Shown piece by piece: positions 1 to 38,126 of a stretch of 54,163 nucleotides of DNA. The notes beneath the pieces were generated by a model that did not search any database, was not told the origin of the DNA, and saw nothing but the letters and a program-made list of their open reading frames with translations. A program made the translations under genes and the position numbers. Each line of letters starts with the position of its first letter. The first letter of the stretch is position 1. Source of the DNA: a virus (Duplodnaviria; Caudoviricetes); the IMG/VR virus record IMGVR_UViG_3300032223_000637, positions 1 through 54,163 of that record, one strand, 5' to 3'.

Positions 1-503
1 GGGCCATAGGGAACTTTGTTTGCTTCTACAAAATAATTTGCATAGAATGCCTTAGCCAACGGAATGTCATTTCCTATGATAGTTTTAAGATAAACATCCT
101 TGGCACGTTCTTGTCGCATTATAGAAGTGATCCTGCCCATATCTAACTGATTTATAGGAACATTGTCCATATCAGTCCAACCATCTAACCAAGGAGCATA
201 GTCGGTTTGCAGTGCGTGTATGAATTCGGTGCCCTCTCCTGCCCAGTCTGTAAACTTGCCAGCCATCTTAGGTGTAGCATTAACACGGCGAACAAAATCC
301 TCAGCGTCAATTTTAAGATGTTTTAGTAGTCCGATAAATGTAGAAGTTCCGCTTTCGCCTGCGATAATCGGAGGACGTTCAGGATCTTCAACTACAGTTA
401 CACTGAGAGTTGGCCAGTTTCTTTTTAAGAATAATGCAGTTAACCATCCTGCACTGCCTCCTCCGAGCACAACTGCTTTAGAATTTGTATTGAAGCGATT
501 CAT
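1..503 (-). CDS. Flavin-dependent tryptophan-halogenase-like protein (N-terminal part only; runs off the window edge)
   Basis: Not in the ORF track. Manual translation from ATG at 503 gives MNRFNTNSKAVVLGGGSAGWLTALFLKRNWP...PIIAGESG...NATPKMAGKFTDW: GxGxxG FAD motif plus the conserved Lys region. Overlaps the stop of the adjacent halogenase. Confidence 0.85.
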   Translation of the reverse strand, partial: MNRFNTNSKAVVLGGGSAGWLTALFLKRNWPTLSVTVVEDPERPPIIAGESGTSTFIGLLKHLKIDAEDFVRRVNATPKMAGKFTDWAGEGTEFIHALQTDYAPWLDGWTDMDNVPINQLDMGRITSIMRQERAKDVYLKTIIGNDIPLAKAFYANYFVEANKVPYG

Positions 504-1983
504 ATCTTTCCTTGATTTTTTCTAGACATACACGATGAGGCCAAGTTTCTACATTGTCGGTATACTGAGTATTTTCTCTCATTATCTCATTGTTGATTTC
601 GATGTACTTGTGCATCTGGCTTTCATATTTTTCTTTGATTTTTTCTGTGTTAAACATACGAAGCCCGTGCATTACCTGAGTATAACTTAGCTGGGTAAAC
701 AACTGCATTGGATGATTAAAATAATGCGGATGCGGCATATGATTCTTAAAGTAGTCTAGATAATCTTTATTGAAATCAGTGATAGCCATTTCGTTTTTAC
801 ACCAGCGCCAAAACTCTGTATCACTGCGTTCTGTGAAATAGTGCAGCTGAATAAAGTCGACAATATTCTTGGCAACAACACTCATATCTTGATTGTATTT
901 CTTCGGAGCGATGTCTGATCCTTTTTCATAAAAGAATATCGCAGGCAACAGCATAAATGACTGCTGTATTGTTGTGCCTATGCTGCTGGCCTCTAATGGC
1001 TCGACGAATATTCCGCTGAGTCCTATGCTGACACAGTTCTTAATCCAAAATTCTTCAACATATCCCGCACCAAATTTTACTCTACGACCAATCTTAAGCT
1101 CGTCAGTGATGCCTAGATTATTAGCATAATGCTGTGATACTTCATCGTAGGCTTTGGTTTCATCTATGAAACTATCACAGAATACATAACCATTACCAAA
1201 TCTTTCCTGTGTGGGAATGCGCCACACCCATCCGCTGCTTAATGCAGTTGATTCTGTGTAACTTGGAATTTCTTCTTTGTATCCTGTAGGAAAAGCCAAT
1301 GCTGAATTCATTGGCAGTTGGTTAGTACAGTCGATCCACTTGGCTCCTAGTTTAGAAGCAATCACTCTGCGGAAGCCACTACAGTCAACAAAGAAATCAT
1401 AACTGTGTGTTGTGTTGTCTTTGTCTAGCAACTCTTTGACATAGCCTTGCTCGTCTAGAATTACATCGTTGATTTCTGTATCTACAATATTGATGTTACG
1501 TTCTTTACAGAGTCTATGTAGGTAGTCGTTTAACTTGAATGTGTCAAAATGATACTGCGCAAATATTTCGTGCAGCGGCTCTGGATGTCTGCTGAGTTTA
1601 CTCCATTTAAAACAAGTATCTAAAGGATCGTAGTTGTTGGCAACCATATGGATCCAAGTAAAAGGCAAGCCGTTTTCTTTGCTGTGTCCACCAAATGTTT
1701 CCATCAGGCTGTGGAAATAGTGTGTGCCGTCGCCGTGCCAATCTGTAAACTTAATGCCCATCTTAAACGTAGCACCTGTTTCTCTAACAAGATCAGTAAC
1801 GTTAACGTCAATGTGTTGGATAAATTTACGCCAGTGTTCTGTAGATCCTTCACCTACACCAATAATACCTAGTTGGCTAGACTCGATCATTGTAATTTTA
1901 AGATCAGGATAGGCTTTGCGCATCATAAGAGCAACAACACAACCGCTGGTGCCACCGCCTAAAATACATAATGAATCTATCAT
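478..1983 (-). CDS. Flavin-dependent tryptophan-halogenase family protein (PrnA/RebH-like)
   Basis: GGGTSG, IGVGEGS, ATFKMGIKF (catalytic Lys position), FVDCSGF, GWVWRIP (WxWxIP), FVEPLEAS; 501 aa. Confidence 0.9.
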   Translation of the reverse strand: MIDSLCILGGGTSGCVVALMMRKAYPDLKITMIESSQLGIIGVGEGSTEHWRKFIQHIDVNVTDLVRETGATFKMGIKFTDWHGDGTHYFHSLMETFGGHSKENGLPFTWIHMVANNYDPLDTCFKWSKLSRHPEPLHEIFAQYHFDTFKLNDYLHRLCKERNINIVDTEINDVILDEQGYVKELLDKDNTTHSYDFFVDCSGFRRVIASKLGAKWIDCTNQLPMNSALAFPTGYKEEIPSYTESTALSSGWVWRIPTQERFGNGYVFCDSFIDETKAYDEVSQHYANNLGITDELKIGRRVKFGAGYVEEFWIKNCVSIGLSGIFVEPLEASSIGTTIQQSFMLLPAIFFYEKGSDIAPKKYNQDMSVVAKNIVDFIQLHYFTERSDTEFWRWCKNEMAITDFNKDYLDYFKNHMPHPHYFNHPMQLFTQLSYTQVMHGLRMFNTEKIKEKYESQMHKYIEINNEIMRENTQYTDNVETWPHRVCLEKIKERYESLQYKF

Positions 1984-3467
1984 AGTTTATAAACCTTATC
2001 TGAATAACGCTCTTTGACAATATTTACAGCTTCTCTACTGGTGTAGAATTTTGTGTCTTTTTCCGACGGCACTGTTGAGTAATGATATCTCACAGCTTCT
2101 ATGAAATGATGAAAGTGCGTATCATATTGCTGTTTGATTTTTTCTACATCGAACATTCTAAGTCCGTGCATTACCTGCACCCAATTTAAAATATCGTAGA
2201 TACAATAGTTTGTAGTAGGCAGTGCCAATTGATTGATAAAATTAGTTTTAAAGATTTCTAAATGTTCAGCATTGAAATCTGTCATTTTTAAATTGTTTTT
2301 ACACCAACGCCAAAATTCTGTGTCATTGCGTTCTGTGAAATAATGCAGTTGTATAAAATCTAAGATGTTGGTCATAACTTCGTCGAAAATCTTATTGTAA
2401 TGTTTTTCTGTTACAGTATCGTTGCGCTGCCAGGTCGACAGTGCACCAGCTAAAACTCGTGACTGTTGTACTGTTGTTGATATGCTGCTGGCTTCTAATG
2501 GTTCTACAAAACTGCTACTCAGCCCAACACTGACACAGTTCTTAACCCAAAACTTATCGACCTTTCCGGAAACAAAGTTGACCTTACGTGCGATTTTAAT
2601 GGGATCGGCAAACTCTTTTTGTATTTCAGCGATAGCCTGATCTTCGGAAATAAATCGATCACTGAAAACATAGCCGTTGCCAAATCTATCCTGTACAGGA
2701 CTGCGCCAATGCCATCCGCTGCTCAATGCTTTGGCTAGGGTGTATGGCGGAATTTCTTCTTGATAAGGACTAGGAAATGCGATAGCTGAATTCATTGGCA
2801 GATACTCTGACCAATCTACCCAAGTAGTTCCTAGCTTAGAAGCGATCACTCTGCGGAATCCACTGCTGTCTATGAAAAAATCAGCAGCATATTTGTTATT
2901 GTCAGTGTCAACAATAGACTCTACAAAGCCTTCTTGATCCAAAACAGCATCTACGATTTCAGCTTCAATGACTTCTATGTCACGTTCGCTGCATTTACCT
3001 AAGAAAAACGCATTTAGTTTTTCGCTGTCAAAATGGAATTGATAAAAATTATCAGCCAGCGGTTCTGCGTGTAGCCCACGCATCGCTAGATCCCAATGCA
3101 TCTTACTGTTGTCAATGCCGTCACGGATCATAGACATCATCGTGTAAGGACAGCCAGTGTAGGGATCTTGCACAGCCATATATTCCGGTAAACTGTGGAA
3201 GTAGTGTGTACCATCACCGTGCCAGTTTTCGAACTTAATGCCGCCTTTGAGTGTGGCGCCACACTCTTTGATGATTTCCCAATTGGCGATTCCTGTAGCC
3301 TTGGCAAACAAATCCCAGTGTTCTGTAGAGCCTTCGCCGACGCCGATGGTTCCTATCTTAGTTGATTTAACAACTGTGATTTTTAAATTAGGCAATGATG
3401 CTCGAAGATATAGCGCAGTCATTAGTCCTGCATTGCCGCCACCAAGCACAGTTAGTGTTTTAATCAT
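1980..3467 (-). CDS. Flavin-dependent tryptophan-halogenase family protein (paralog)
   Basis: GGGNAG, IGVGEGS, ATLKGGIKF, FIDSSGF, GWHWRSP, FVEPLEAS; clearly paralogous to 478..1983; ATGA-type overlaps. Confidence 0.9.
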   Translation of the reverse strand: MIKTLTVLGGGNAGLMTALYLRASLPNLKITVVKSTKIGTIGVGEGSTEHWDLFAKATGIANWEIIKECGATLKGGIKFENWHGDGTHYFHSLPEYMAVQDPYTGCPYTMMSMIRDGIDNSKMHWDLAMRGLHAEPLADNFYQFHFDSEKLNAFFLGKCSERDIEVIEAEIVDAVLDQEGFVESIVDTDNNKYAADFFIDSSGFRRVIASKLGTTWVDWSEYLPMNSAIAFPSPYQEEIPPYTLAKALSSGWHWRSPVQDRFGNGYVFSDRFISEDQAIAEIQKEFADPIKIARKVNFVSGKVDKFWVKNCVSVGLSSSFVEPLEASSISTTVQQSRVLAGALSTWQRNDTVTEKHYNKIFDEVMTNILDFIQLHYFTERNDTEFWRWCKNNLKMTDFNAEHLEIFKTNFINQLALPTTNYCIYDILNWVQVMHGLRMFDVEKIKQQYDTHFHHFIEAVRYHYSTVPSEKDTKFYTSREAVNIVKERYSDKVYKL

Positions 3468-4072
3468 AGGTCTACTTGTATAGTTGCTTTAGAGTCAGTG
3501 GCTAGATTGTGATTAACTTTACCTGTAGGGAATGTATTGAAACTAATGATAAATCTATCAAGCTGACCAAAGTGTGTAGGACTGCTGTGGAACAACCAAC
3601 TTGGAAATATAATTAATTTTCCTGGTACAGCATCTGAAGTAATTGAAGAATTATAGTCGTGTCGCAGTACTTCTAGTTGAGCAAACGCTCGCTGTGTTAC
3701 TGGATCTTCAAACAAGGTAGGTGCACCGTCAGTGGCATAGTATACTCCGCTGTACATACTCATAGAATGTCTATGATAGTTCTGATACATTGACTCTTTG
3801 CCTATGGCTACATTGAACCAACTGTTGATAATCTCAATTTTATCACAGTCGTATTTCATTGTTACACGGATTTCTTCCAGACATTCGCGGAACCAATCAA
3901 ACAATGGTTCAAAGTCTGGATCTTTATGTAGGTCTGCTAGTACACTGATGTTGGTGTTTTTCTTTACAGGCGCAGTGGTCATACGCTCTAGCTTACCAAC
4001 TAGTTCGTAGTTGTCTATGTTAGGATTGTTGAATACAAAAACTTCAACAGGAAAAAGATTTAGTATTTCCAT
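3464..4072 (-). CDS. Putative 2OG-Fe(II) oxygenase (TIGR02466-like)
   Basis: SWFN...HRH...SGVYY...GKLIIFPSWLFH...RFIISFN pattern. Confidence 0.8.
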   Translation of the reverse strand: MEILNLFPVEVFVFNNPNIDNYELVGKLERMTTAPVKKNTNISVLADLHKDPDFEPLFDWFRECLEEIRVTMKYDCDKIEIINSWFNVAIGKESMYQNYHRHSMSMYSGVYYATDGAPTLFEDPVTQRAFAQLEVLRHDYNSSITSDAVPGKLIIFPSWLFHSSPTHFGQLDRFIISFNTFPTGKVNHNLATDSKATIQVDL

Positions 4073-4650
4073 TAATACTCAACCCAACCTGTTAACAGAT
4101 ATTTTTCACCGCTCAGTGGAGGATTGCCACGATGTGTGTGCGTGAATCCTGCAGGCCAAATTGTCAGTGTGCCTTTGGTTGCAGGTACACGTAGGTTCTG
4201 GTAGAGCCATTCTGTTTCTCCACCTTGCTCTACAGTATTAAGATAGACGCCCCAGGCACAGATGCGAGCAGATCGCTCAATTGCATCTGATTCAAAATGC
4301 CATTGATGATATCCTTCGCCGGGCATTGTTTTTTGTATCTTCATTGATCGTATAGTATGCTTGCCTGCTTCTTGTAGAACGCTGTAATGTTCAAGATATT
4401 CAGACCAGCAATGCCAAAATCTATCCATAAAGAAACCTAGAAATCCTGCTCCCGGACCAAACCGCAGAGATTTTTCATCTAAAACGTAAACACCTTTGTC
4501 ACTTTTATAATGTGCAAGGCCGTCTTTGATTGCTTGTCTTGTGTAACTGAGTTGTAATTGATCTAGTCTATTGAAATGATCAATAATCTGCTGGCACTCG
4601 TTGTCTGTAAGAATGCCGTCCCAGATGCCAATATCTTTTTCTAGTTTCAT
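4072..4650 (-). CDS. 2OG-Fe(II) oxygenase (prolyl-4-hydroxylase-like)
   Basis: GYHQWHFE...YLN..GGET...WPAGFTHTHRGNPP..KY; start moved to ATG 4650 (MKLEKD), uncertain. Confidence 0.85.
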   Translation of the reverse strand: MKLEKDIGIWDGILTDNECQQIIDHFNRLDQLQLSYTRQAIKDGLAHYKSDKGVYVLDEKSLRFGPGAGFLGFFMDRFWHCWSEYLEHYSVLQEAGKHTIRSMKIQKTMPGEGYHQWHFESDAIERSARICAWGVYLNTVEQGGETEWLYQNLRVPATKGTLTIWPAGFTHTHRGNPPLSGEKYLLTGWVEY

Positions 4651-4725
4651 ATTCAATGCAGAACCCTTGTAAACGATACTATATATATCATAAATTAACA
4701 CAGCATATTACTATCCTGGACTCCT

Positions 4726-5319
4726 ATGAACTCTGAAAAAACACTTTGGCCTTTGTTCTCTAAACCAATTTTTAAAACACCTGTTGATGTTTCGGGGTTA
4801 GATCTCAGCAGCGTAGAATGGCTTCCAAATTACAATAATTGGATCAGCAAATCACAGAACATTCTAGAGCAACCTGGATTTGAAAAACTGTCACAGGTAG
4901 TGTTTGACGGAGTCTGTGAATATTTCTATGGTATAATGCAGGCCAGTGAAAAAGTTGAACTAGCGATCACAGAGTCCTGGTTAAACAAAACAGAAAAAGG
5001 ACAGATACACCATAGACATTATCATCCTAACAGCATTTTTTCTGCGATAGTATACCTTGAATCTGAAGGTGAAACAGGGCAAACTAAATTTATTACCAGC
5101 GAATATCAAACCATAGAATACGATATCAACGATTCAAATCTCTACAATTCCAAGAGTTGGAGTATCGCACCTAAGGTTGGAGATATGTTGGTATTTCCTT
5201 CTAGCGTTGAGCATATGGTTACAGAATATCAAGGTAACACTCCACGCATCACACTGAGCTTCAATACATTTTTACGTGGTCAAATCAACTCAATGCCGCT
5301 GACAAGGCTGAGTATTTAA
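4726..5319 (+). CDS. Putative 2OG-Fe(II) oxygenase (TIGR02466-like)
   Basis: SWLN...HYHPNS.FSAIVY...GDMLVFPSSVEH...RITLSFN; paralog of 3464..4072. Confidence 0.82.
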   Translation: MNSEKTLWPLFSKPIFKTPVDVSGLDLSSVEWLPNYNNWISKSQNILEQPGFEKLSQVVFDGVCEYFYGIMQASEKVELAITESWLNKTEKGQIHHRHYHPNSIFSAIVYLESEGETGQTKFITSEYQTIEYDINDSNLYNSKSWSIAPKVGDMLVFPSSVEHMVTEYQGNTPRITLSFNTFLRGQINSMPLTRLSI

Positions 5320-6235: not shown

Positions 6236-6958
6236 ATGTCTAACTTTAACAGTATCAGATTACTACCAAATTATGATCACACAACTTTAACACGTAAAGT
6301 TGCAGCCAAGGGCGAAGTGTTTTATGACCCAGATACCGTATCTTTGCGAGTATTTGACGGTGCGGTTTCTGGAGGGTACACTCTTTTAAGAGCTGACCTA
6401 AACAACGTATCTGGAACACTACCTGCGGCAAATCTAGCAGGAAATATTCCCAACAGCAAACTAGCTAACCCTACGATAACACTGGGAACTACAGCGGCTT
6501 CACTAGGTGCAACAGTTACTGATATCGCTGGATTGAATTCTATCGCAGCTACAACATTCACTGGTAATTTGTCAGGTACTGCTTCAAGTGTAACCAACGG
6601 TGTTTATACTACAGGCCCACAGACTATCGGTGGTGCTAAAACATTTAGTACGACTATCGTAGGTAATATCAGCGGCAATGCTGGCACAGCATCAAAGCTT
6701 CAAACATCGATAACCATCAACAATCAACCGTTTGATGGATCGACCAGTGTCATTATACCAGCAGATGCAATGATGCTAACTAATGATACTATCGCAGCAA
6801 ATGTTATTCACTCAAGCCTACAAGATGTAGGTACATTGACAAGTTTATCAGTAGCGGGAGCAATAACTGTTCCAACTACCCCAGTTGCTAAAACAGATGC
6901 AACAAACAAAAATTATGTAGACATTAGAGCAGTGGCAATGTCAGTAGCACTAAGTTAA
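6236..6958 (+). CDS. Tail-fibre-like structural protein
   Basis: Thr/Gly/Asn-rich with fibre-type segments FTGNLSGTAS, GNAGTASKL, INNQPFDGS, SSLQDVGTLTSL, DATNKNYVD. Confidence 0.65.
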   Translation: MSNFNSIRLLPNYDHTTLTRKVAAKGEVFYDPDTVSLRVFDGAVSGGYTLLRADLNNVSGTLPAANLAGNIPNSKLANPTITLGTTAASLGATVTDIAGLNSIAATTFTGNLSGTASSVTNGVYTTGPQTIGGAKTFSTTIVGNISGNAGTASKLQTSITINNQPFDGSTSVIIPADAMMLTNDTIAANVIHSSLQDVGTLTSLSVAGAITVPTTPVAKTDATNKNYVDIRAVAMSVALS

Positions 6959-6979
6959 ATTAACCAAGGAAATACCTAA

Positions 6980-9900
6980 ATGTCGAAGAAACAGATTACG
7001 AATTATAAATTTAGTCCAGGCGGAATTCCTCCGGCATACGGTCTATATCCTAATGCAGTGGCATTGTTAACAGCGAACAAATCATTCCTTATCGCTGAGA
7101 TGGATCAATATATTCGCAACCAAATCACAGCAAACGCCAGCAACTCTAGCAGTCCGTACTATGGTTATTCGTACACGACTACAAGATCAAACAAGTGCCA
7201 ACGCGACACAGGGTATATCATTGATGCAATTATCTATGACTTGACCTATGGCGGAAACTCATTAATTTATCAGCAAGCTCAGCGTTTTTATGTCAACGGC
7301 GTCCTCCAGGTTCTTACTCCTGCTGTAGAAGTTGACACGCATACTTGGTTAAGAAACAAGATCACAACTAACATTTTAACAAAAACCAGCTACACAAAAC
7401 TCAACACTCAGCCAACAGCTAATCAGGTCCTATCAGGATCTGCCGGTGAAGCGGGCAGTGCTGCGGTAGTTACTACAGAATACAATGTAGTAATTAATGC
7501 TATCAATACTGGCTTGAGTTCGTTGCCTACAGCCGTTGTTCCAAACAGCCAAGGTGCTAATCTAGCTCCTGACACAGTAACATTATTAGATGCTAATAAA
7601 CGTTTTATTCAAGAAGAAGCCATTGCTTATATCCAATACAACGTAGCCAACAACATTGCGCCTTATGCCTACTATACCTATGACGCTGCAAAATGTCGAC
7701 GTGACGTTAGCTATATTTTAGATGGCTACATCAACGATATCAAACACGGAGGCAATAAAAAGACTGTTAACTATGCTTCGAAATACTTTGAAGGCGGAAT
7801 TCCACAGGTCGATGGCAGTCGTCAGCCTGAGGTCTATGCACATACTTTTATCAAAGATCTAATAGAAAACTATATTTTAGTCAACGTTGCATTTGCTGCT
7901 AGACAGACATCAGTACCACAGACAATTAATTTTTCTGTCAGTGCTGAAGTTTTTGGAACAACGCTAATTTCAACTCTTTCTGGCGTAGTTATTGATGTAA
8001 TTGCCAATGGCTTAACATCTGTACCTTCGATACTAACTAACCAGGGTACAGTTAAGTTCCCAGGATTCTACAAACTAAAAGACCTATTACTAATTACCAA
8101 CACATCACGTAGCGTGATTTTGTATAACTTTGCTGATCCAGCAACCGCAGCACAGATTACCTACAGCGGAGACTTTGACAGCGATTTTCCAGGAGCACTC
8201 TACGGCAACGACAAAGTTACCACAGTAACCTTTGACGTCGACACTACTGGAATGATGATCACCGATCAAATCCAAATTTTCGTTGAAGGCAAAGAACAAA
8301 CAGTACGATTAAATCCGATTGCCACAGACGCAATGGAACGTATGAAAGTAGGTATTCCACAGTCAATGCTTGACGCGGACTTTGAATACGGACTACAGCC
8401 AACTAAGTGGCAGACAGTTTCGATGATGCGTAACTATCCATCTGTTTATGAAATTCCAGGATCAGACCTTCCGGTTGTGTCAGTGACCACTGATGCATCA
8501 TCAGGCACCAGCGGTGTTGGTGCAAGCCAGATTACAGTTACTACTGTAGCTGCACACGGACTAAACGCAGGCGATGTGTTTACAATCAAAGCATTGGCAG
8601 CTTCTGTGTTAGGATTTAGCCGTGCAGAAGGTACATTCCTTGTTGCATCGGTAGTTAGTTCAGTGCAATTTACCTACTATGCAAAATCAAAAGTTGGCAC
8701 AACAAACCCAACTACACTAAGCCAAACATATACACAGTTACGTAAAGCTGGTTTCTATACAGGTGCATCAGTTGGTACACCAAGCTTCAACGTTTACTCA
8801 AATGGTCAAAGCGGTACTATTACTTCAAGTTTAATAACAGCCACTGGTTCAAACTTTATTGGTTTCACAGGTTCACCTCCTCCACAAGGAGCTCCACTAA
8901 CTGGTTCTTCTATTAACTCTGGTACACAGATCACAGCGGTAGTTGGAAGTGGTGGTACGGTTACAACTACACAATTGACCAGCACTGCCAACATTGGTGA
9001 CACACAGATTGTTGTTGCTAGCACCGCTGGCATATTGCCAGGATTGGTATTCAACCGCGGTGATGGCGTTGCTGTACAGGTTCTTGATGTAACCAGCAAC
9101 ACAGTTACACTAAGCGGCACACTAACCAGCTTAATCAATGGTACCAATCAAACCTACACAGAAGTCAACGGCACAGTATCACCCGCAGGCGGCACCGGAG
9201 CAACATTTGCTGTGTCAAGAACGGGCGGTTCATACACCGCAGTGGTCGGATCAAGTAACGGCCAAGGCTACAGCGCCAATGATGCTATTACAATTTTAGG
9301 TAGCAACCTGGGCGGCGCAAGTCCAGCTAACGATGCAACTATCACAGTTTTAACTGCTGCTCCAAAGAACACCGTTGTTGATTTAGACCCAACAACATTA
9401 AATGTCGGCTCAGGCGGTTACAGTGATGCTACTGGTGTGTTGACTGTAGGCGGAACTGGTACTGGTTTAACTGTAGATATCACAACCTCTGCTACGGTCA
9501 TTCAAACGGTTACTGTACGTAATCCAGGCAGCGGTTACACAGTGGGCAATACAGTTACTATCGCAGGCGGTAATGGCGATGCAGTTATCAGCATACTAAC
9601 AGTTGCACCAGGTGGAGATATTCAAACATTTACTATCGGCGGCACGCCAGCGACTGCACCAAGCGTTGGATTTACCAGTGCTATTACACTAAGTGATATA
9701 ACAACTGGAAATATTTCAAACGCCAGCACATCGGTGTCATATACTTCAATCCCAACAATTGAAGTAACATTCTTAAACGCACACGGATTTATTCCAGGCG
9801 ACAGTATTACAGTTGCTATTACCAGTTCAGATACCAATGCTCAACTAGCAGCAGGTGCATATTATGTTGAACAAACTCCAACAACAAGTTCGTTGCGTTA

Positions 9901-12900
9901 CACTGCTAGGGCTCCGGGCACGATCGCTAACACATTAACAGGCATTGTTTATTCAAGACCAGACAGCTACTATGTACACAGACCATATGACGGCGGTGTA
10001 CAACTAGGTACAGGCGGTCCAGCACACGGCGCCACAGCGATTCGTATGAGTAAGAAATATATTCGTTACCAATCTGGTAAAGGTATTATGTACAACACCG
10101 GTGCGCTATTTGCTCCAAGCTATGATATTCAAAGTGTCACAGCGACCGGTACTGCGGTAAACAGCGTTATCACAGTTACCAACGATGACACTGACCACGG
10201 TTGTCAGGTAGGTGCGCAGATTACACTTAACGGTGTAACTACATCCGGTGTAAATGGCGTATACACTGTTGCTTCTATTATCAACGAACGTAGCTTTACA
10301 GTTCGAGCAACGCAGGTGTTAGGTTCTTCGACAATCGTGTTAGGTGATCCTTGCTATATGTCAGTGCTACACTGGCACGGTTCAACTGTTCGTTCTGGTA
10401 CATTCGATGACCAAAACGGTATGTTCTGGCAGTATGATGGTATTAGAATGGCTGTTGTCAAGCGTTCAAGTACCAACCACGTTGCTGGTACAATCAATAT
10501 TGCCACAGATTCAAACTTACTCACTGGTACTAACACAAGATTTACACAGCAGTTGGCTGCAGGCGATCGCGTTGTTATCAAAGGTATGAGTCACGTAGTA
10601 AGTCAAATCGTCAGCGACACTACATTGTATGTAACTCCCGACTATCGTGGAGTTAGCAACGTAGTTGGTGGTAAGATGACCAAGACCATCGACTTGGTTA
10701 TTCCTCAAGAGAATTGGAACCTAGATCCATTAAACGGGTCTGGGCCAAGCGGATACAACATCGACGTAACAAAGATGCAGATGATCGGTATGCAATGGAC
10801 TTGGTACGGTGCTGGATTTATTGACTTTATGTTGCGTGGTTCAGAAGGTAACTACACTTTTGCACACCGTTTCCGTAACTCAAACGTTAACCAAGAAGCA
10901 TATATGCGTTCTGGTAATCAACCTGTTCGCTACGAAGTTATTAATGAAGGTGCTAGAGATAAACTAGTTTCTGCAATTGATTCTTCACAGACAACTATTC
11001 CGTTGACTAATGCTTATTGGTTCCCATCAGCAGGTACTGTTATTATTGAAGCTGAAATGATACGTTACACCGGTAATGATGGTACGAACCTAACAGGGTG
11101 TGTACGTGGAACATCATTATCACAGTTCGTAGCTGGATCAACTAGAACATTCTCAGGTGGTGTGGCATCAGCACACGCTGCCAGCTCGGGTGTTATTTTA
11201 ATTAGTAACACAATTACTCCAATTATCAGTCACTGGGGTTCTGCGTTTATGATTGACGGACAGTTTGACAGTGACCGTGGTTATTTGTTTAACTATGCTT
11301 CTACTGGTATTTCTGTTACAACAGATAAGCAGACAGCTTTCTTGATCCGACTAGCACCTTCAGTGTCTAATGCTGTTGTTGGTGACTTAGGCGAGAAAGA
11401 ATTATTAAATCGTGCGCAGTTGTTGTTACAGACTGTGGCTATTTCCTCAGACGCTGTGTCAGGTAACACAGGCGGTATCGTTGTTGAAGGTGTGTTAAAT
11501 CCACAGAACTATCCAACTGACCCGACTAAGATTACCTGGACTGGACTTGCATCAAGTGCGGCAGGCGGACAACCTAGCTTTGCGCAGGTAGCTGCTGGAG
11601 GTTCTGTAACTTGGTCAGGTAACTTTAGTACAGCAACAGCAACAATTCAAGGTGCGTTTACAACAACATTAACAGCAACATCATTTGCTCCGTCAACTAA
11701 CTCGTTGACAGCAGTTGGATTTAATGCAGTGACTCAAACTGCGGCAGCAACATCGTTTGCTGTGGCAACGTCGGCAACATATAACTCTGCGTTAAGCACA
11801 GCGAGAAACGATTTCTTGATTCCTATGTCGACATATACTACGTTGCAAGGTCAAACACCATTGGCAGTTGGTGATACTATTTCTGCAACAACGTATATCA
11901 CTGGCGGTCAAACAATTACAGGTTTAACTCCGAACTATACTACACTGGCATCTGTGGCCTATGCTAGAATTACGATGAGTGCTGTGGCTAACGCAACATC
12001 ACCGACAGCAGCATCCAACGGTGCGCAGAATATTACAGTGACATTTACCAGCTCTGTGGCAGCAACGTTTGCATCTGCATTGAGTACTGCACGTTCAACA
12101 TTCTTGATCACGCAGACTCAGTATGCTAGTTCAGCGGCAGCAGTCACTGACGTGTTAAGTACAGCAACCTACTTGACAGGAAATCAAACAATTTCTGCTA
12201 GAACACCTAACTATACAACAATCCAAGGTGTGTCATACGCATTGATCCAAACGAGTTCTGCAGCAAACGCTACTAGTGCTTCTGGTTCAGCTAACAGTGT
12301 AACGATAACAGCAACTTCTGCAGCAACAGCAACATATGGCTCTGCACTAAGCACTGCACGTACAGACTTCTTAGTGACAGATACACAATGGTCAGCTAGC
12401 GGTATTTTAGCAGGCGATGGGTTATCAGTGGCAACATATATTACTGGTGGCCAGACAGTGTCTAGTGTTCAAATAGGTTATGTAACTATCAACGCTACTA
12501 GCTATACTAGAGTGGTTATGAGTGCTGCGGCTAACGCAACGTCAACATCGGGTAGTGGCAATAACCAAACAGTAACAGTAACCGCAGCAGGTACTGGCGC
12601 AACTTATCAGAAAACCAACTACTTGTTCTTTACATCAACTAGCTGGTTAGCAACCAATGCCACACTAGGTACCAAAGTTGCTACTGATCAAACAGCGTTC
12701 CCAGCGGGCACATCTGTAGCAGCGGTAAGTTCGAGAACTTTCGGTTCTACCACAGTATATCGTATAACGTTTACTCAAACAACTAACACAACTCTTAATG
12801 CTGCCGGTACATTGAAATTCCAGTTCGGTGCTGCTTATGCGTTACCAGGTGAACAGGTATTCTCGTTCATTAGTAACCCAGGAAACGTTGATAACTTAGA

Positions 12901-13054
12901 TCTAAGTGGATTGAAAGAACTTACTTCAACAAGTATTGGCGGTAGAGGTACATTCCCGAATGGCCCAGACGTATTAGCGATTAACGTTTATAAAACGGCT
13001 GGCTCGGGTACAACAGCTAACGTTATTTTACGTTGGGGTGAAGCGCAGGCTTAA
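6980..13054 (+). CDS. Giant virion structural/fibre protein (2024 aa) with two N-terminal phycobiliprotein-like helical repeats
   Basis: T/S/G/V-rich beta segments, G.GY repeats, three ~100-aa C-terminal repeats, two KCxRD..YI.D.....GGN repeats; AAGGA SD. Confidence 0.75.
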   Translation: MSKKQITNYKFSPGGIPPAYGLYPNAVALLTANKSFLIAEMDQYIRNQITANASNSSSPYYGYSYTTTRSNKCQRDTGYIIDAIIYDLTYGGNSLIYQQAQRFYVNGVLQVLTPAVEVDTHTWLRNKITTNILTKTSYTKLNTQPTANQVLSGSAGEAGSAAVVTTEYNVVINAINTGLSSLPTAVVPNSQGANLAPDTVTLLDANKRFIQEEAIAYIQYNVANNIAPYAYYTYDAAKCRRDVSYILDGYINDIKHGGNKKTVNYASKYFEGGIPQVDGSRQPEVYAHTFIKDLIENYILVNVAFAARQTSVPQTINFSVSAEVFGTTLISTLSGVVIDVIANGLTSVPSILTNQGTVKFPGFYKLKDLLLITNTSRSVILYNFADPATAAQITYSGDFDSDFPGALYGNDKVTTVTFDVDTTGMMITDQIQIFVEGKEQTVRLNPIATDAMERMKVGIPQSMLDADFEYGLQPTKWQTVSMMRNYPSVYEIPGSDLPVVSVTTDASSGTSGVGASQITVTTVAAHGLNAGDVFTIKALAASVLGFSRAEGTFLVASVVSSVQFTYYAKSKVGTTNPTTLSQTYTQLRKAGFYTGASVGTPSFNVYSNGQSGTITSSLITATGSNFIGFTGSPPPQGAPLTGSSINSGTQITAVVGSGGTVTTTQLTSTANIGDTQIVVASTAGILPGLVFNRGDGVAVQVLDVTSNTVTLSGTLTSLINGTNQTYTEVNGTVSPAGGTGATFAVSRTGGSYTAVVGSSNGQGYSANDAITILGSNLGGASPANDATITVLTAAPKNTVVDLDPTTLNVGSGGYSDATGVLTVGGTGTGLTVDITTSATVIQTVTVRNPGSGYTVGNTVTIAGGNGDAVISILTVAPGGDIQTFTIGGTPATAPSVGFTSAITLSDITTGNISNASTSVSYTSIPTIEVTFLNAHGFIPGDSITVAITSSDTNAQLAAGAYYVEQTPTTSSLRYTARAPGTIANTLTGIVYSRPDSYYVHRPYDGGVQLGTGGPAHGATAIRMSKKYIRYQSGKGIMYNTGALFAPSYDIQSVTATGTAVNSVITVTNDDTDHGCQVGAQITLNGVTTSGVNGVYTVASIINERSFTVRATQVLGSSTIVLGDPCYMSVLHWHGSTVRSGTFDDQNGMFWQYDGIRMAVVKRSSTNHVAGTINIATDSNLLTGTNTRFTQQLAAGDRVVIKGMSHVVSQIVSDTTLYVTPDYRGVSNVVGGKMTKTIDLVIPQENWNLDPLNGSGPSGYNIDVTKMQMIGMQWTWYGAGFIDFMLRGSEGNYTFAHRFRNSNVNQEAYMRSGNQPVRYEVINEGARDKLVSAIDSSQTTIPLTNAYWFPSAGTVIIEAEMIRYTGNDGTNLTGCVRGTSLSQFVAGSTRTFSGGVASAHAASSGVILISNTITPIISHWGSAFMIDGQFDSDRGYLFNYASTGISVTTDKQTAFLIRLAPSVSNAVVGDLGEKELLNRAQLLLQTVAISSDAVSGNTGGIVVEGVLNPQNYPTDPTKITWTGLASSAAGGQPSFAQVAAGGSVTWSGNFSTATATIQGAFTTTLTATSFAPSTNSLTAVGFNAVTQTAAATSFAVATSATYNSALSTARNDFLIPMSTYTTLQGQTPLAVGDTISATTYITGGQTITGLTPNYTTLASVAYARITMSAVANATSPTAASNGAQNITVTFTSSVAATFASALSTARSTFLITQTQYASSAAAVTDVLSTATYLTGNQTISARTPNYTTIQGVSYALIQTSSAANATSASGSANSVTITATSAATATYGSALSTARTDFLVTDTQWSASGILAGDGLSVATYITGGQTVSSVQIGYVTINATSYTRVVMSAAANATSTSGSGNNQTVTVTAAGTGATYQKTNYLFFTSTSWLATNATLGTKVATDQTAFPAGTSVAAVSSRTFGSTTVYRITFTQTTNTTLNAAGTLKFQFGAAYALPGEQVFSFISNPGNVDNLDLSGLKELTSTSIGGRGTFPNGPDVLAINVYKTAGSGTTANVILRWGEAQA
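11770..12610 (+). repeat. Three tandem ~95-105-aa protein repeats in the giant protein
   Basis: ATY/FxSALSTARxxFL...TYI/LTGxQT...Y....M/TS..ANATS occurs three times; boundaries approximate. Confidence 0.85.
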
Positions 13055-13323
13055 AGATTTTCACGCCAGGCACGAAGTCTACTATCGATCGCCTGGCGGA
13101 GATCTCTAATTTTTACACGTAGGTCTTCGATTTCGGTTCCGGGTTTTTCGCCTAGAGTCAACCGACCGTGTGCTTCGTCAATGGATTGAACTGTTAATTT
13201 TAGGCTTAGAAGATTTCCTTCTAAAAGTTCCTTTAATTTGTCGTCAGTAACAACGTCAATTTCAGACTTGAATCTCTCATACTCAGTTAAAAATCTTTCT
13301 GATTTAAGTAGCGGTGTGAACAT
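13051..13323 (-). CDS. Hypothetical coiled-coil protein
   Basis: 90-aa helical ORF overlapping the upstream gene. Confidence 0.6.
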   Translation of the reverse strand: MFTPLLKSERFLTEYERFKSEIDVVTDDKLKELLEGNLLSLKLTVQSIDEAHGRLTLGEKPGTEIEDLRVKIRDLRQAIDSRLRAWRENL

Positions 13324-13693
13324 TTACTAACTCCAATATAGTTTCGATCTTTGTGCGGATCAGTTGATTATTTAATGTTGCTTTAAGACCGGGGTGTAGC
13401 TGCTTTGGTAGATAATCTAGATCACACCAAGCAATAGACTGTGCTGTAGTTGTTAAAAACTCTGTGTCAACTAAGCATACATAGGTACCGTACTCAAATC
13501 CACGGTCTTCGCTGAGGTACAATTCAATAGGCAATATCCTACCTTGACTGTAATTGTTTAATAATTCTTGGGCATCTTCTAATAAGATATTTTTCCTAGC
13601 AAACGTCGGTACTGTCCATTTCTCGTTTTCGAGAATCATCAGTACACGTTTGGTATTTTTAGCTAGGAATAATAATCCGGCACGTTGTTGCAT
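13304..13693 (-). CDS. Degenerate Nudix-fold-like protein
   Basis: AGLLFLA..RVLMIL..W and AWCDLDYLPKQLHPGL resemble phage Nudix flanks, but there is no Nudix box; ATG 13693 lies 5 nt after TAAGTA. Confidence 0.45.
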   Translation of the reverse strand: MQQRAGLLFLAKNTKRVLMILENEKWTVPTFARKNILLEDAQELLNNYSQGRILPIELYLSEDRGFEYGTYVCLVDTEFLTTTAQSIAWCDLDYLPKQLHPGLKATLNNQLIRTKIETILELVNVHTAT

Positions 13694-13701
13694 CAACGTA
13701 C

Positions 13702-15192
13702 TTATTTAGGATCGAGTATGAAACCCCAGTAACTTGGCGCATATTCACCTTCAAATGCCTTTAGCCATTCATTACCGGTCCAACGATATTTGATACCTGT
13801 ACGAAGATTTTGGATATAAATCGGCGGATTAAATGTAGTCGGATCAAATACAGTTACCCAATGTGTACCAGTCCAACGAATCACGGTGTTGGCTTTGATA
13901 ATTGGGTCAGACCCATCTAAGTTCTTCCAAGCATCTGGTCCATCATATTGCTGACTATCTCTAATAGTACCACCAACATTAAAGCTGTTATTGACATCAT
14001 CTAACATTAGGTATCTTAATGTTGTAGGAATTTGAGACTGTGATCCGTAGACTTCGATAGGATTAAATTTGTAAGGATCGATAATAGCATCTACAGTACC
14101 TCTTCCGTTGCTGTCTACAGCGCCTAGATCGTTGATTAGTGTATTTGCTGGTACTGTATCCCTATCAAAGGTAACGATGATATGACTAGGATCTACAGGG
14201 TTAATTGCAAAAGTTCCAACCATTGTGTGACCGTTTGGTTGATCGAAATACATTTGACTACCAGCAGTATATCCGCCGCGTGTTTCTAAGACGGCATTCC
14301 AATCAATAGCATTGCCTAGTTTCAATAGTTTCTGATCCAGACCCATTGACAATATTGCCTGCGTTGGATCAGCAATAGTAACATCGTAATCGTAGGGCTG
14401 TCCGTTTGTAGACTTGAACAATAATACTCTATAATTATCTGTAGTCGTGTTGAAGTTGCCTGTGGCTCTGTTGTAAACTAATCCTTCTAGATTTACAACA
14501 TCTCCCGTTTCTGTAAATGCGTTATTAATAATGGCTTTAACAATACCTAAACGTTTAACCTTAGCCGGAGGACTAACCCATATCGGCATATCAAATTCCA
14601 AAGTACAAATATCGATTTCGCTTTCAGCACCTTGCGGAATTTGCCTTGAACTAAAATTAATTGTATTAAGATTTAATACAGTTAAGCTGGTCCAGTCGAT
14701 ATAGTTATCTGTGGTTTGTAATTCTAGGCTTGGGTTGAACAACACAAGGATCTGTTCTAGCAACTGTAATTTTTGATCAGTGCTGCTAGTCCATATATCA
14801 CATTTCATTGTTAATTTAAATGGAGTTGGCTGTAATCTTTCAACCGTATAATTCCCACCTTGAATGTTTTTATATTCAACTAATCCAGTTTCTTCGTTTT
14901 TTGTGTAGGCTCTTTCTCGAATGTTTACCTTGCTAACAAATGTTGGATCACTAAGACGTTCTTTATCAAGTTCTAAACTACCAATATAGCAGGCCATTCT
15001 TGGTACTGTAGACATTTTATTTTCGCTGTTATCTTTGAGTATACCAGCGACCATACGTGTCATATCACCATATAGCACCGGCACATAGCGTTCTTCGGGT
15101 ATATCACCACCGGTCTTATACTTGAAGCCGGTGAATACTCGCATAAACTGCGTTACATATCGGCGAACCTGCCCGTCGTAAAAATAATCCAT
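13702..15192 (-). CDS. gp15: Tail sheath stabilizer/tail terminator, gp15-like with C-terminal extension
   Basis: YFYDGQVRRYVTQF...VP..YG...PTPFKL...QLLEQILVLFNP; next to neck genes. Confidence 0.7.
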   Translation of the reverse strand: MDYFYDGQVRRYVTQFMRVFTGFKYKTGGDIPEERYVPVLYGDMTRMVAGILKDNSENKMSTVPRMACYIGSLELDKERLSDPTFVSKVNIRERAYTKNEETGLVEYKNIQGGNYTVERLQPTPFKLTMKCDIWTSSTDQKLQLLEQILVLFNPSLELQTTDNYIDWTSLTVLNLNTINFSSRQIPQGAESEIDICTLEFDMPIWVSPPAKVKRLGIVKAIINNAFTETGDVVNLEGLVYNRATGNFNTTTDNYRVLLFKSTNGQPYDYDVTIADPTQAILSMGLDQKLLKLGNAIDWNAVLETRGGYTAGSQMYFDQPNGHTMVGTFAINPVDPSHIIVTFDRDTVPANTLINDLGAVDSNGRGTVDAIIDPYKFNPIEVYGSQSQIPTTLRYLMLDDVNNSFNVGGTIRDSQQYDGPDAWKNLDGSDPIIKANTVIRWTGTHWVTVFDPTTFNPPIYIQNLRTGIKYRWTGNEWLKAFEGEYAPSYWGFILDPK

Positions 15193-16457
15193 TAATTATC
15201 TGCCTCTGGTCTAAGGGCCTTTGATAGGCTCTGTTTCTCTTTGGTAACTTGACCGTTAATAACATCTGTCTTGGTGTTATTAATAAATGAAGTTTTCTGT
15301 GTAACTCTTGTTTCTTTACCTTCAAATCTGTTGCCGGAAGTAGTATCGCTATCACCGAGATTACTCATTGTCATACGTACATCATCTTCAATTTTCACCC
15401 AATGTGCTCCATCAAATCTAAACAATCTATTTGGTAGATAGTCTGTGCGTAGACAGAATTGACCTAAGGTAGGATTTAACGGATAAGCAATACCAGAGGT
15501 AAAAGGTGCACCATTACCTGGAACACCGTCGCCTACTAAGTATCCTTGATAATCGTTGTGATCCGGAGATTGGAATACTGACGAAGCAGTAATACCCATA
15601 TATACAGGATCGCCATTTTCATCAACTAACGGATTACCGTTAGCATCTGTGCTAGGTATTAGTAATTCCTGTGTGCTATCTACTGTTACTAGTGCAGCAT
15701 TTCCAGTAAGTGGATCAGTCTGCATTGTGTAATATTTGGTTGTATCATATCCACTCTTAGGTGCATCAGCTTCAGCCTGATCAAGTATTGCTTGGCTGAT
15801 CTGCATTTCTTTTTCATAGGTACTGACAATGTCACGCAGTGTTGTATTGGTAGGGTTACCGTTGGCATCTGTTTGAACCTGATTAAGAATGTCTGCAAAT
15901 TCTTGACTATCTACTAACGGTTTGCATTTTGCACGATATAGATGTGGATACCAAGTTACTGAAAAACCTTCAGCAGCACGGTTAACTTCTTCGATAACAT
16001 AGAAACGCTTCAATGCAAAAGTTAAATCATTGAGTGCATATTCATCTTTTAGGTGTGGCAATTCAATAACATCACCTGCGATAATTTTACGACCAAGTTT
16101 TTCCACAGTATCATTTATATGGAACGTAATAAAAATAGTATCGTTCTGTAAAAATAATCCAAATTGGCTTAAATTGAAATCGATATCTTGTAGGTTATAT
16201 ACTCCTCGCAATAGATATACATCTGGATCGTACTTGCGATCGCGATTTTCTAAGAACAATAGATCTTGTATATTTGTTGGGCTTGCAGTGGAATACGCAG
16301 GCTGCGATGGGCTAGCACCCAAACTAGCAGTTCCGGATCCTATATATCTGTGTACAAGCACATCAACACCGCCAACCTGGAACATTTCCCAGACGGTTTT
16401 ATCGATGAATTTGTAGTCGTTGCCCTTTTCGGGACGGTATAGCGAGAGTCTTGGCAT
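15192..16457 (-). CDS. gp14: Neck protein, gp14-like
   Basis: LFLENRD, SQFGLFLQND, GDVIELP motifs; start MPRLSL at 16457 (16463 also possible) downstream of TAAATA. Confidence 0.6.
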   Translation of the reverse strand: MPRLSLYRPEKGNDYKFIDKTVWEMFQVGGVDVLVHRYIGSGTASLGASPSQPAYSTASPTNIQDLLFLENRDRKYDPDVYLLRGVYNLQDIDFNLSQFGLFLQNDTIFITFHINDTVEKLGRKIIAGDVIELPHLKDEYALNDLTFALKRFYVIEEVNRAAEGFSVTWYPHLYRAKCKPLVDSQEFADILNQVQTDANGNPTNTTLRDIVSTYEKEMQISQAILDQAEADAPKSGYDTTKYYTMQTDPLTGNAALVTVDSTQELLIPSTDANGNPLVDENGDPVYMGITASSVFQSPDHNDYQGYLVGDGVPGNGAPFTSGIAYPLNPTLGQFCLRTDYLPNRLFRFDGAHWVKIEDDVRMTMSNLGDSDTTSGNRFEGKETRVTQKTSFINNTKTDVINGQVTKEKQSLSKALRPEADN

Positions 16458-16464
16458 AGTCATA

Positions 16465-16485
16465 TATTTACCGCTACGATAAATA
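16465..16485. promoter_or_regulatory. Back-to-back divergent late promoters TATTTA-N9-TAAATA
   Basis: tatttaccgctacgataaata lies between the divergent gp14-like and gp13-like starts. Confidence 0.7.
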
Positions 16486-16490
16486 ACAGT

Positions 16491-17249
16491 ATGAGCCAAA
16501 TTGACCAATCAAAACAAGCAGTTTATAACTATTGCAAAGCTATGCTGGGCGATGGTATGATCGACATTGAGCTAGATCCTATCCATTACGAAACAGCATT
16601 AAATCGTGCCCTAGCAACATTCCGTCAACGCAGCGACAACGCTGTGGAAGAAAGTTATGCGTTTTTAACTCTGCAACCAGATACCAACGAATATATTCTT
16701 CCAAAAGAAATCCAACAAGTACGTCAGATTTTCCGTAGGACTATTGGATCACGCACAGGTAGCGGAACGGGTGGTACAGCTTTTGAACCGTTCAACCTAG
16801 CCTATACAAACACCTATTTGTTAAGCTCAACAAATATGGGTGGATTGTTGACCTATGAATTGTTTGCCCAGTATCAAGAAATGGTTGGAAAAATGTTCGG
16901 CGCATTTATTAACTTTACCTGGCATCCACAGAGCCGCAAGTTAATAATTCAACAAAGACCACGTGCGGAAGAAGAAGTTATGCTAATGGTCTACAACGTC
17001 AAACCAGACTTTGCCATCATAGACGATACCTACGCAGGGCAATGGATCAAAGACTACACACTAGCTAACTGCAAAATGATGCTTGGACAAGCACGTGAAA
17101 AGTTTGCGCAGATTGCTGGTCCGCAAGGCGGCTCAGCATTAAACGGTGCAGCAATGAAAACCGAAGCTCAATCCGAAATGGATAAGTTAGTCGACGATCT
17201 AATGAAATTGGTTCCCGGCGGCAGCGGGTATACCTGGATTATCGGTTGA
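16491..17249 (+). CDS. gp13: Neck protein, gp13-like
   Basis: YCKAMLGDGMIDIEL, WIKDYTLA.CK..LG..R.KF..I.GP.GG..LNG. Confidence 0.75.
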   Translation: MSQIDQSKQAVYNYCKAMLGDGMIDIELDPIHYETALNRALATFRQRSDNAVEESYAFLTLQPDTNEYILPKEIQQVRQIFRRTIGSRTGSGTGGTAFEPFNLAYTNTYLLSSTNMGGLLTYELFAQYQEMVGKMFGAFINFTWHPQSRKLIIQQRPRAEEEVMLMVYNVKPDFAIIDDTYAGQWIKDYTLANCKMMLGQAREKFAQIAGPQGGSALNGAAMKTEAQSEMDKLVDDLMKLVPGGSGYTWIIG

Positions 17250-38125: not shown

Positions 38126-38126
38126 A

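Follow-up and report, generated by a model that had tools for sequence, protein, structure and literature searches.

What would a phage gain from a structural protein that begins with two domains resembling phycobiliproteins? The question is raised by IMG/VR virus record IMGVR_UViG_3300032223_000637, a 54,163-nucleotide stretch of DNA (positions 1 to 54,163; hereafter the window) from an uncultured myovirus (Duplodnaviria; Caudoviricetes). An uninterrupted reading frame in this window codes for a protein of 2024 amino acids (Table 1), whose residues 1-358 appear to form two tandem domains of the bilin-binding globin superfamily, the group that unites phycobiliproteins with their BBAG paralogues. 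Both domains keep the Cys-x-Arg-Asp motif of helix E and, by prediction, the globin core. The reading we favour, with a confidence that stops a little short of even, is that they are self-attaching bilin-binding modules carried on a fibre of the virion.

A first-pass annotation of this locus, made from the letters alone, had described two helical repeats 166 residues apart at the N-terminus of the protein. The distance between Cys73 (codon 7196-7198) and Cys239 (codon 7694-7696) is exactly 166 residues, and residues 21-190 align with residues 191-367 at 34% identity over 164 columns (E=4e-23), so that the repeat, judged from sequence, is far above chance. The location proposed at that time, 7040..8040, holds, with the limits moved slightly outward to 7034-8053 by the domain profile. 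Eighteen residues precede domain 1, and domain 2 abuts it directly. The two motifs fall in a K-C-Q-R-D stretch (residues 72-92) and a K-C-R-R-D stretch (residues 238-258) of a protein that contains just five cysteines in its entire length. No third copy of the domain is found in the six frames of the window with a profile of the domain.

Each single measure of kinship with phycobiliproteins is weak, yet every one of them points to that family. The only Pfam family matched by the whole protein is PF00502. Searched with the single sequence, the PDB yields 19 matches at E<=10, and 17 of these 19 belong to phycocyanin or allophycocyanin. When the profile of alignment A1 is used instead (37 domains, drawn from the window and from viral loci related to it, that are just 16-35% identical to one another), the first 13 PDB matches are all phycocyanin alpha chains, with a best E of 0.0045. 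This alignment extends over residues 39-104 of CpcA, and in it the phage C-x-R-D lines up with Cys84-x-Arg86-Asp87 of C-phycocyanin alpha, a register read from the chain numbers printed by HMMER. The correspondence of Cys, Arg and Asp with the chromophore-binding residues, which the first-pass annotation had proposed, is thus reproduced by profile alignment. The earlier count of 10 matching positions in 21 also recurs, in the HMMER alignment to R-phycocyanin alpha chain 1f99_A (K, C, R, D, G, Y, Y, L, G and G).

Scanned one at a time, 10 of the 37 A1 domains match PF00502 at E<=1, with 4.3e-4 as the best value; every other family is matched by two of them at most. A precomputed PF00502 match exists for five of the 120 homologues listed. 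Domain 2 alone draws no phycobiliproteins from the PDB sequences and one match in all at E<=10; its assignment therefore derives from its similarity to domain 1 and from the same helix pattern in the two-domain model. Entries with BBAG in their titles are absent from the PDB sequence and structure result lists, and an ESM Atlas look-up returned low-scoring viral clusters with no named match.

The AlphaFold2 model of domain 1, computed on A1, has six helices (predicted local distance difference test, pLDDT, 94.8; predicted template modelling score, pTM, 0.90). In the two-domain model (pLDDT 88.0, pTM 0.87), domain 2 repeats the pattern of six helices and a small hairpin. All rows shown by Foldseek against the PDB are phycobiliproteins, with template modelling scores of 0.47-0.60. 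A Foldseek-independent aligner, run over 48,161 representative chains, fills its top eight places with phycobiliprotein or ApcE chains (Z 13.3-11.3); the best partner of the domain 1 model is 8or7_A, which superimposes with a root-mean-square deviation of 2.2 Å over 120 residues. For the two-domain model, each of the 50 rows is a chain of phycobiliprotein type (one has the title 'bacterial fluorescent protein') and aligns to domain 1; the top match is 2vjh_B (Z 14.6, 2.2 Å over 132 residues).

The predicted fold is globin-like, and specifically phycobiliprotein-like, as the first-pass annotation had anticipated. Sequence and model together indicate that domain 1 is a phycobiliprotein-type globin core, and a similar core is inferred for domain 2 from its likeness to domain 1 and from the two-domain model. 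Most structural alignments pair model residues 1-5 with chain residues 28-34, which suggests that the predicted domain is a globin core without the N-terminal X-Y hairpin, a judgement based on the alignment ranges and the predicted model. In phycobiliproteins this hairpin pairs alpha with beta to form the alpha-beta monomer. Because the scores stay below the PF00502 cut-off and the X-Y hairpin is missing, we place the phage domains in the bilin-binding globin superfamily and do not call them phycobiliproteins.

Such scores invite the objection that the likeness arose by chance or convergence, and that the protein merely carries an unrelated helical repeat with a short common motif. The single-sequence values are marginal: PF00502 reaches 15.6 bits with the whole protein, 16.7 bits in a six-frame search and 17.4 bits with domain 1 alone, all below the cut-off of 22.2 bits; the best single-sequence PDB match has E=0.024; and the best Foldseek match has E=7e-3, with none at E<=0.001. 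Helical folds also give high Z values easily, and the independent aligner itself carries the caveat that helical models may score Z of about 14 without kinship. For this reason, our confidence in homology comes from the agreement of sequence and structure and not from Z by itself. Against a chance likeness, Pfam, the PDB searched by sequence, the PDB searched by profile, Foldseek and the second aligner all choose phycobiliproteins only, and the alignments extend across the entire globin core and keep the motif in register. We consider a chance resemblance very unlikely.

A search with residues 1-360 finds 376 proteins of 1113-3542 amino acids, and the query together with the 120 homologues listed (121 proteins) contains 500 domain matches, mostly two per protein and 18 at most. 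In 1.84 billion representatives, an exhaustive profile search finds 1613 clusters at E<=1e-3; at the stricter E<=1e-30 the number is 684, and a single protein can have as many as 41 matched stretches. A metagenome scan adds 26 relatives, the best 68% identical, and all 129 of the 129 isolate phage records that match the domain are cyanophages. Short forms of 74-326 amino acids number 16 in a shared-word search, which distant ones can escape; 15 lie on contigs below 3 kb and one on a 9.6-kb contig, so they resemble fragments at contig ends and lend no support to a free single-domain protein.

Long arrays of the domain occur in G010, a related genome of 399,796 bp rated 100% complete, which has 38 domain matches. 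In the parts of G010 analysed, one open reading frame (ORF) of 6682 amino acids has no fewer than 34 phycobiliprotein-like domains in which the motif is covered, with C-x-R-D in 28, and in a second ORF, of 4122 amino acids, five of five such domains have C-x-R-D (loci L117, G010:C1:103000-122999, and L118, G010:C1:355000-368000). Candidate bilin sites thus number two in the window protein, and two G010 proteins together have at least 33.

The Cys is conserved in homologues, which the first-pass annotation had named as a point on which its proposal would turn. The closer set comprises 413 unique domains; 408 of them have the Cys, 404 the Arg and 412 the Asp. In a wider sample, taken from 145 of the 150 best representatives (the remaining five are already in the closer set), 1449 of the 1522 domains with a residue in the Cys column have Cys, and 1418 have the full C-x-R-D. 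The losses are not scattered evenly: 73 losses fall in 32 of 145 proteins, compared with 55.7 +/- 3.0 proteins expected (0 of 5000 permutations). In protein P0233, Cys is lost in 8 of 11 domains. In locus L023 (6010-7029), a relative 45% identical to the N-terminus of the window protein, substitutions have removed both Cys, yet the profile continues to match the two domains strongly (E=4e-37 and 5e-53), so the fold does not appear to depend on the motif. Clustered losses and the L023 case together suggest that the motif is kept or lost protein by protein, in the manner of a shared optional function.

These same observations bear on a serious competitor, in which the domain is a pigment-free structural module. 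On this account, a helical domain derived from phycobiliproteins would serve as a rigid, stackable fibre block present in 2 to more than 30 copies, and C-x-R-D, together with Asp87, the G-G-N at 91-93 and Gln149, would form an internal polar network or a contact between domains or chains. The spacer-like variation in copy number, from 2 to 18 among close homologues and up to 41 stretches more widely, fits this idea, as do the persistence of Cys-less domains (L023 and P0233), the missing X-Y hairpin and the existence of several invariant residues without a phycobiliprotein counterpart. However, packing alone is a poor explanation for a single buried Cys in about 95% of more than 1500 domains that are less than 35% identical. 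The residues retained are exactly the bilin-contacting triad in the correct register, and the fold outlasts loss of the motif, so the motif should serve something besides folding. With the evidence described below included, we rate a pigment-free module nearly as likely as the favoured reading.

The pocket might instead hold heme, biliverdin or another tetrapyrrole non-covalently, or a metal through Cys and Asp, or the domain might act inside the cell as a bilin or heme sink. The structural ranks that follow the phycobiliproteins are consistent with such a role, since they are heme sensor globins (4zva_A and 4uiq_A, Z 10.5) and the biliverdin/B12 photocobilin 8j2w_B (Z 9.7). In addition, BBAG-2 is described as binding biliverdin without CXRD (PMC10151467), and a role of the phage bilin genes in iron supply has been discussed (PMC11480375). 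However, no His is found among the columns conserved at 60% or more in the 413-domain set, so the proximal ligand of a globin-type heme site is missing. Moreover, the conserved triad is that of covalent bilin attachment, and the domain belongs to a protein whose body is, by homology, that of a virion structural protein. We regard these other ligands and locations as improbable.

The search for bilin genes that the first-pass annotation had recommended was run in relatives, and it recovered hemO and pcyX but neither cpeT nor cpeS. In relative G001, a heme oxygenase gene is followed immediately by one for a ferredoxin-dependent bilin reductase (FDBR), downstream of DnaK, Hsp20 and ClpS. The same contig bears a full-length orthologue of the window protein (68% identical), about 76 kb from the hemO-pcyX cassette. 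The Hsp20-ClpS-HemO-FDBR block is repeated in G006 and in the complete G010. The G001 FDBR is of the PcyX type (5owg_A, E=1.9e-67) and is 50% identical to the FDBR of Pelagibacter phage Mosig, and the G001 HemO, aligned to human HO-2, retains the proximal His and the G-D-L-x-G-G-Q motif. As far as sequence can tell, the cassette of the relatives is intact-looking.

PcyX relatives are encoded by 395 stretches of viral contigs. Twelve large contigs among the best 80 of these stretches formed the sample for co-occurrence, with a domain threshold of E<=1e-10. The domain is present in 7 of these 12 pcyX-positive contigs, and all seven are among the eight contigs with a completeness of 35% or more. 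A lineage with a bilin pathway, no other evident acceptor and no psbA in the records searched speaks against a pigment-free module.

The G001 cassette sits in a longer array. In locus L035 (G001:C1:148000-167000, about 6359-16705), genes for DnaK, Hsp20, ClpS, HemO and PcyX are consecutive and are followed by a curli-type set and RimK. The curli-type set consists of CsgF, CsgG with an SH3 tail, two curlin-repeat proteins and a FecR-domain protein. Phage curli genes have been described earlier in pelagimyophages (PMC7029224); those of L035 lie in a jumbo lineage.

Several results weigh against pigment on the particle. The window itself, about 15% of the genome, contains no hemO, FDBR or lyase gene, and the cassette is not found in the closest large relatives, which are partial (G003, 38% of the genome, and G002, 56%). 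Pelagibacter phage Mosig, whose genome is complete, has hemO-pcyX and shows no domain match at E<=0.01, which implies that the cassette has at least one other use. The 191-kb, pcyX-positive contig G009 likewise has no domain match. All contigs positive for both pcyX and the domain belong to one phage lineage, so they are not independent observations and provide no independent control. Among lyases, CpeT is found in 0 of 7 and CpeS in 0 of 5 related records, the complete G010 included, in a search for T-type and S-type lyases in viral records; the lack of these two lyases also agrees with a pigment-free module. Asp87 (413 of 413), Asn93 (396 of 413) and Gln149 (392 of 413), as well as the G-G-N at 91-93, are near-invariant in the closer set. 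Because these positions are equally invariant and are not hallmarks of phycobiliproteins, C-x-R-D might serve a different conserved network. Finally, the clustering of Cys losses could come in part from tandem duplication of a Cys-less copy.

The claim that the domains are on a virion depends on the rest of the protein and on the genes around it. The PHROG family phrog_5838, annotated as 'virion structural protein', matches residues 354-1394 with E=5.9e-225. Residues 359-1407 are 44.7% identical to SXBG_00214 of cyanophage S-CAM1 over 98% of the query (tblastn) and 34% identical to S-PM2p175, and both of these proteins carry the annotation 'virion structural protein'. Of 103 records that match this conserved body by tblastn, 96 are cyanophages. 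The phycobiliprotein-like domain has no match at E<=1 in the S-CAM1 and S-PM2 body loci, which indicates that the two-domain cassette is an N-terminal addition in the lineage of the window. Full-length orthologues that include this cassette are present in G003 (65% identity), G001 (68%, residues 1-1550) and G002 (56%). Fusion of the domain to different virion proteins, together with its absence from the orthologous S-CAM1 and S-PM2 bodies, is again what a pigment-free building block would predict.

Gene order points in the same direction as homology. The S-CAM1 homologue has a small tail-fibre gene upstream and gp13, gp14 and gp15 after it, and the neighbourhood in the window matches this order (homologues of gp13, gp14 and gp15) with some genes inverted. 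The gp15-type neighbour places the gene in the neck/tail module. The 2024-residue product is thus inferred, from homology and gene position, to be a virion protein; the first-pass annotation had called it one outright, and the two lines of support it now has are of exactly these kinds. Residues 359-2024 have no match at E<=0.01 among PDB sequences. Toward the C-terminus (residues about 1590-1880), an A-L-S-T-A-R motif at residues 1604, 1700 and 1789 recurs and marks diverged protein repeats that are not visible in the DNA, where Tandem Repeats Finder returns 0 rows for the gene. This Thr/Ala/Ser-rich part is possibly the receptor-binding end.

The two-domain cassette was added at the front end of a virion structural protein whose cyanophage counterparts lack it. 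On the favoured reading, during particle assembly in the infected cell, each domain would take up a linear tetrapyrrole and bond it covalently through Cys73 or Cys239, with the Arg and Asp of C-x-R-D holding the pigment. The pigment would most likely be phycoerythrobilin, made from host heme by the HemO and PcyX of the lineage. Since no known lyase was found, attachment is proposed to be self-catalysed, as in BBAG-1 and BBAG-3, which would leave the particle with a light-absorbing group on its fibre. The most speculative step is a function of this pigment in light sensing or photoprotection, with an effect on adsorption. Light gating of adsorption goes no further than a suggestion, prompted by the statement that in cyanophages light-dependent adsorption may be a property of the tail fibres and does not need host photosynthesis (PMC6628666). 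The full proposition, that particles of this lineage are covalently pigmented with self-attached, phage-made phycoerythrobilin that works as a light sensor or shield of the free virion, we consider less likely than not.

Comparison with known systems clarifies what is shared and what is distinctive. With phycobiliprotein subunits (PF00502; 1i7y_A, 2vjh_B and 8or7_A), the phage domain has in common the globin core (Z 13.3-14.6, 2.2 Å over 120-132 residues), a Cys-x-Arg-Asp on the equivalent helix in the Cys84 register and a length of about 165-175 residues. It differs in falling below the Pfam cut-off, in lacking the X-Y hairpin and in having the additional invariant Asp87, Asn93 and Gln149. 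Furthermore, it occurs as a tandem module in a 2024-residue protein and not as a free subunit, and no lyase genes were found in its lineage.

The BBAGs of heterotrophic bacteria, to judge from their published description, offer another parallel. They too are phycobiliprotein paralogues outside photosynthesis. Rockwell et al. 2023 (PMC10151467) describe BBAG-1 and BBAG-3 as carrying CXRD and binding bilins without a lyase; in this motif, they state, the bilin is linked covalently to the Cys and hydrogen-bonded by the Arg and Asp. A BBAG has been reported to bind phycoerythrobilin made by phage PebS, with absorption at 552 nm (PMC13446030). BBAGs occur in genomes that also encode a heme oxygenase and an FDBR; among the relatives of this phage, G001, G006 and G010 have both genes, not adjacent to that of the domain, while neither was seen in the partial G002 and G003 or in the window. 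However, BBAGs are described as small cellular proteins encoded beside heme oxygenase and FDBR genes (PMC10151467), whereas the phage domains are part of a virion-type protein.

The bilin-binding domain of ApcE (4xxi_A, 7eyd_19 and 7sc7_BD; Z 11.8-12.0) is similarly embedded in a large multidomain protein. ApcE is non-viral, has one such domain per protein and resides in the phycobilisome. It acquires its pigment without a lyase, through a Cys at another position. Sensor globins that bind heme (globin-coupled sensors, RsbR type) match less well: the phage domain has no conserved proximal His and scores Z 10.5 with them, compared with 13.3 for phycobiliproteins.

Within phages, giant tail, baseplate and fibre proteins of T4-like cyanophages contain the same domain family (S-RSM4 SRSM4_146, S-PM2 Q5GQW5, S-CAM1, S-WAM2 and S-H9-1). 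This kinship is evident from BFVD fold matches and from two domain matches in the S-RSM4 gene. The window protein differs from these repeats in having just two copies at its extreme N-terminus, a different carrier and a jumbo lineage of about 360-400 kb. No psbA or cpeT was found in the relatives searched, and the FDBR of this lineage is of the pcyX type. The phage hemO-pcyX cassette (5owg; Mosig; PMC11480375) occurs in relatives G001, G006 and G010 and not in the window. It is a pair of enzymes and not a domain, and Mosig has the pair without the domain.

The benefit of hemO-pcyX to phages is a matter of speculation for the authors who characterised these genes, who list a BBAG-type acceptor as one possibility (Nat Commun 2024, PMC11480375). 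Some cyanophages adsorb in a light-dependent way for which the host need not photosynthesise; receptors and/or tail fibres sensitive to light have been proposed as the cause, and no photoreceptor for it is known (PMC6628666). No report of a phycobiliprotein-like or bilin-binding domain in phage virions was found in full-text literature, a body that includes few subscription journals and no supplements; the lack of any report of pigmented phage particles in the literature searched is compatible with a pigment-free module. Heme oxygenase, bilin, phycocyanobilin, curli and tryptophan halogenase have 0 occurrences in Chen et al. 2020 (PMC7674155), and a bioRxiv preprint that applies AlphaFold 3 to cyanophages has 0 mentions of phycobili-, phycocyanin, allophycocyanin or globin. 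On the subject of phages, the S-CREM2 paper mentions lyase genes only, and the available sections of PMC10151467 bring in phages only for PcyX. New here are a minimal N-terminal cassette, with two copies of the domain, on a carrier protein that can be identified and in a jumbo lineage in which no psbA was found, and the presence of a full-length orthologue and an intact-looking hemO-pcyX pair on one contig (G001).

The phage lineage differs from what had been supposed. The first-pass annotation assumed a cyanophage setting, and the core genes point elsewhere: terminase and sheath indicate a jumbo-phage lineage, and psbA and psbD are found in 0 of 10 related records searched, the complete G010 among them. 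The window is a fragment that amounts to about 15% of its genome by CheckV estimate, and its genes include those for sheath, tube, neck, terminase, gp32, UvsX/UvsY, helicase and primase. Its terminase is closest to that of Pseudomonas phage PA5oct (54%), with Sinorhizobium phage Phosso, Agrobacterium phage Atu_ph07 and Pectobacterium phage CBB also near, and the sheath agrees in having PA5oct, Phosso and Atu_ph07 as nearest relatives. Identity to the window terminase is 91% for G003, 83% for G002 and G006, and 62-64% for G004, G001, G010 and G009; related contigs reach 266-400 kb. With PA5oct-type core genes and no psbA in relatives, identification as a T4-like cyanophage was rejected. The interpretation offered at the outset is supported in part, through the predicted fold and the conservation of Cys.

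The fibre body and the accessory genes, in contrast to the jumbo-phage core, are cyanophage-like and would also allow a cyanobacterial host. The nearest isolates to the window's halogenase are cyanophages (59 of 70 records, best 38.9%), and this affinity, set against the PA5oct-like terminase and sheath, marks the genome as a mosaic. No tRNA genes that could hint at the host are found in the window.

Other features of the window are recorded here for completeness. Two tandem tryptophan-halogenase genes and four genes of 2OG-Fe(II) oxygenase or endonuclease V-like type are located at 478-5319 and 53563-54156. Five successive ORFs at 35564-39744, coding for 269-306 amino acids and lacking any Pfam or PHROG match, form two paralogue groups: one comprises those at 35564, 36399 and 38908 (21-27% identity, E 8e-16 to 2e-8), and the other is the pair at 37316 and 38094 (24% identity, E 2e-16). 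This run adjoins a GT8-like glycosyltransferase gene at 34936-35646. An ORF of 148 amino acids at 52235-52681 matches the C-terminal domain of malonyl-CoA decarboxylase (PF05292, E=3.6e-8), which is unusual for a phage.

Table 1. Coordinates of the virion-type gene, its predicted parts and nearby tail genes in the window
Feature	Position	Strand	Basis
Whole gene: tail-region virion-type protein with two phycobiliprotein-like domains, conserved body and C-terminal repeats	6980..13054	+	Open frame; phrog_5838
Domain 1 (residues 19-192), predicted phycobiliprotein-type globin domain	7034..7555	+	Domain profile E=6.8e-56
C-x-R-D motif of domain 1, Cys73-Gln-Arg75-Asp76	7196..7207	+	HMMER alignment to C-phycocyanin alpha
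Domain 2 (residues 193-358), second copy of the domain 1 type	7556..8053	+	Domain profile E=3.5e-61
C-x-R-D motif of domain 2, Cys239-Arg-Arg241-Asp242	7694..7705	+	Same alignment column as Cys73
Conserved body (residues 359-1407), common to cyanophage virion structural proteins without the phycobiliprotein-like domain	8054..11200	+	tblastn
About three diverged protein repeats of about 90-96 residues each in the Thr/Ala/Ser-rich C-terminal part	11747..12619 (limits approximate)	+	Sequence
Upstream neighbour, 240 residues, weak tail-fibre match	6236..6958	+	phrog_1833 'tail fiber protein' E=4.5e-7; no Pfam match
Downstream neighbour, gp15-type tail sheath stabiliser	13702..15192	-	PF16724 T4-gp15_tss E=7e-27; phrog_227
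Head-tail adaptor	16491-17249		PHROG annotation scan of the window
Sheath	18341-21736		PHROG annotation scan of the window
Tube	21739-22389		PHROG annotation scan of the window

If the favoured reading is true, the hemO-pcyX genes of phages would gain an acceptor of their own in phages without a visible link to photosynthesis. The domain would also be a candidate photoreceptor for the light-dependent adsorption of cyanophages, as its family occurs in the tail proteins of such phages, including S-PM2. As far as our literature searches show, this would be the first pigment-bearing phage particle. The cassette would represent a compact, possibly self-attaching bilin-binding module, and the history of phycobiliproteins would extend beyond cells. 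If no pigment is bound, this family, with its 1613 protein clusters, would still be a clear example of a photosynthetic antenna fold put to new use as fibre material.

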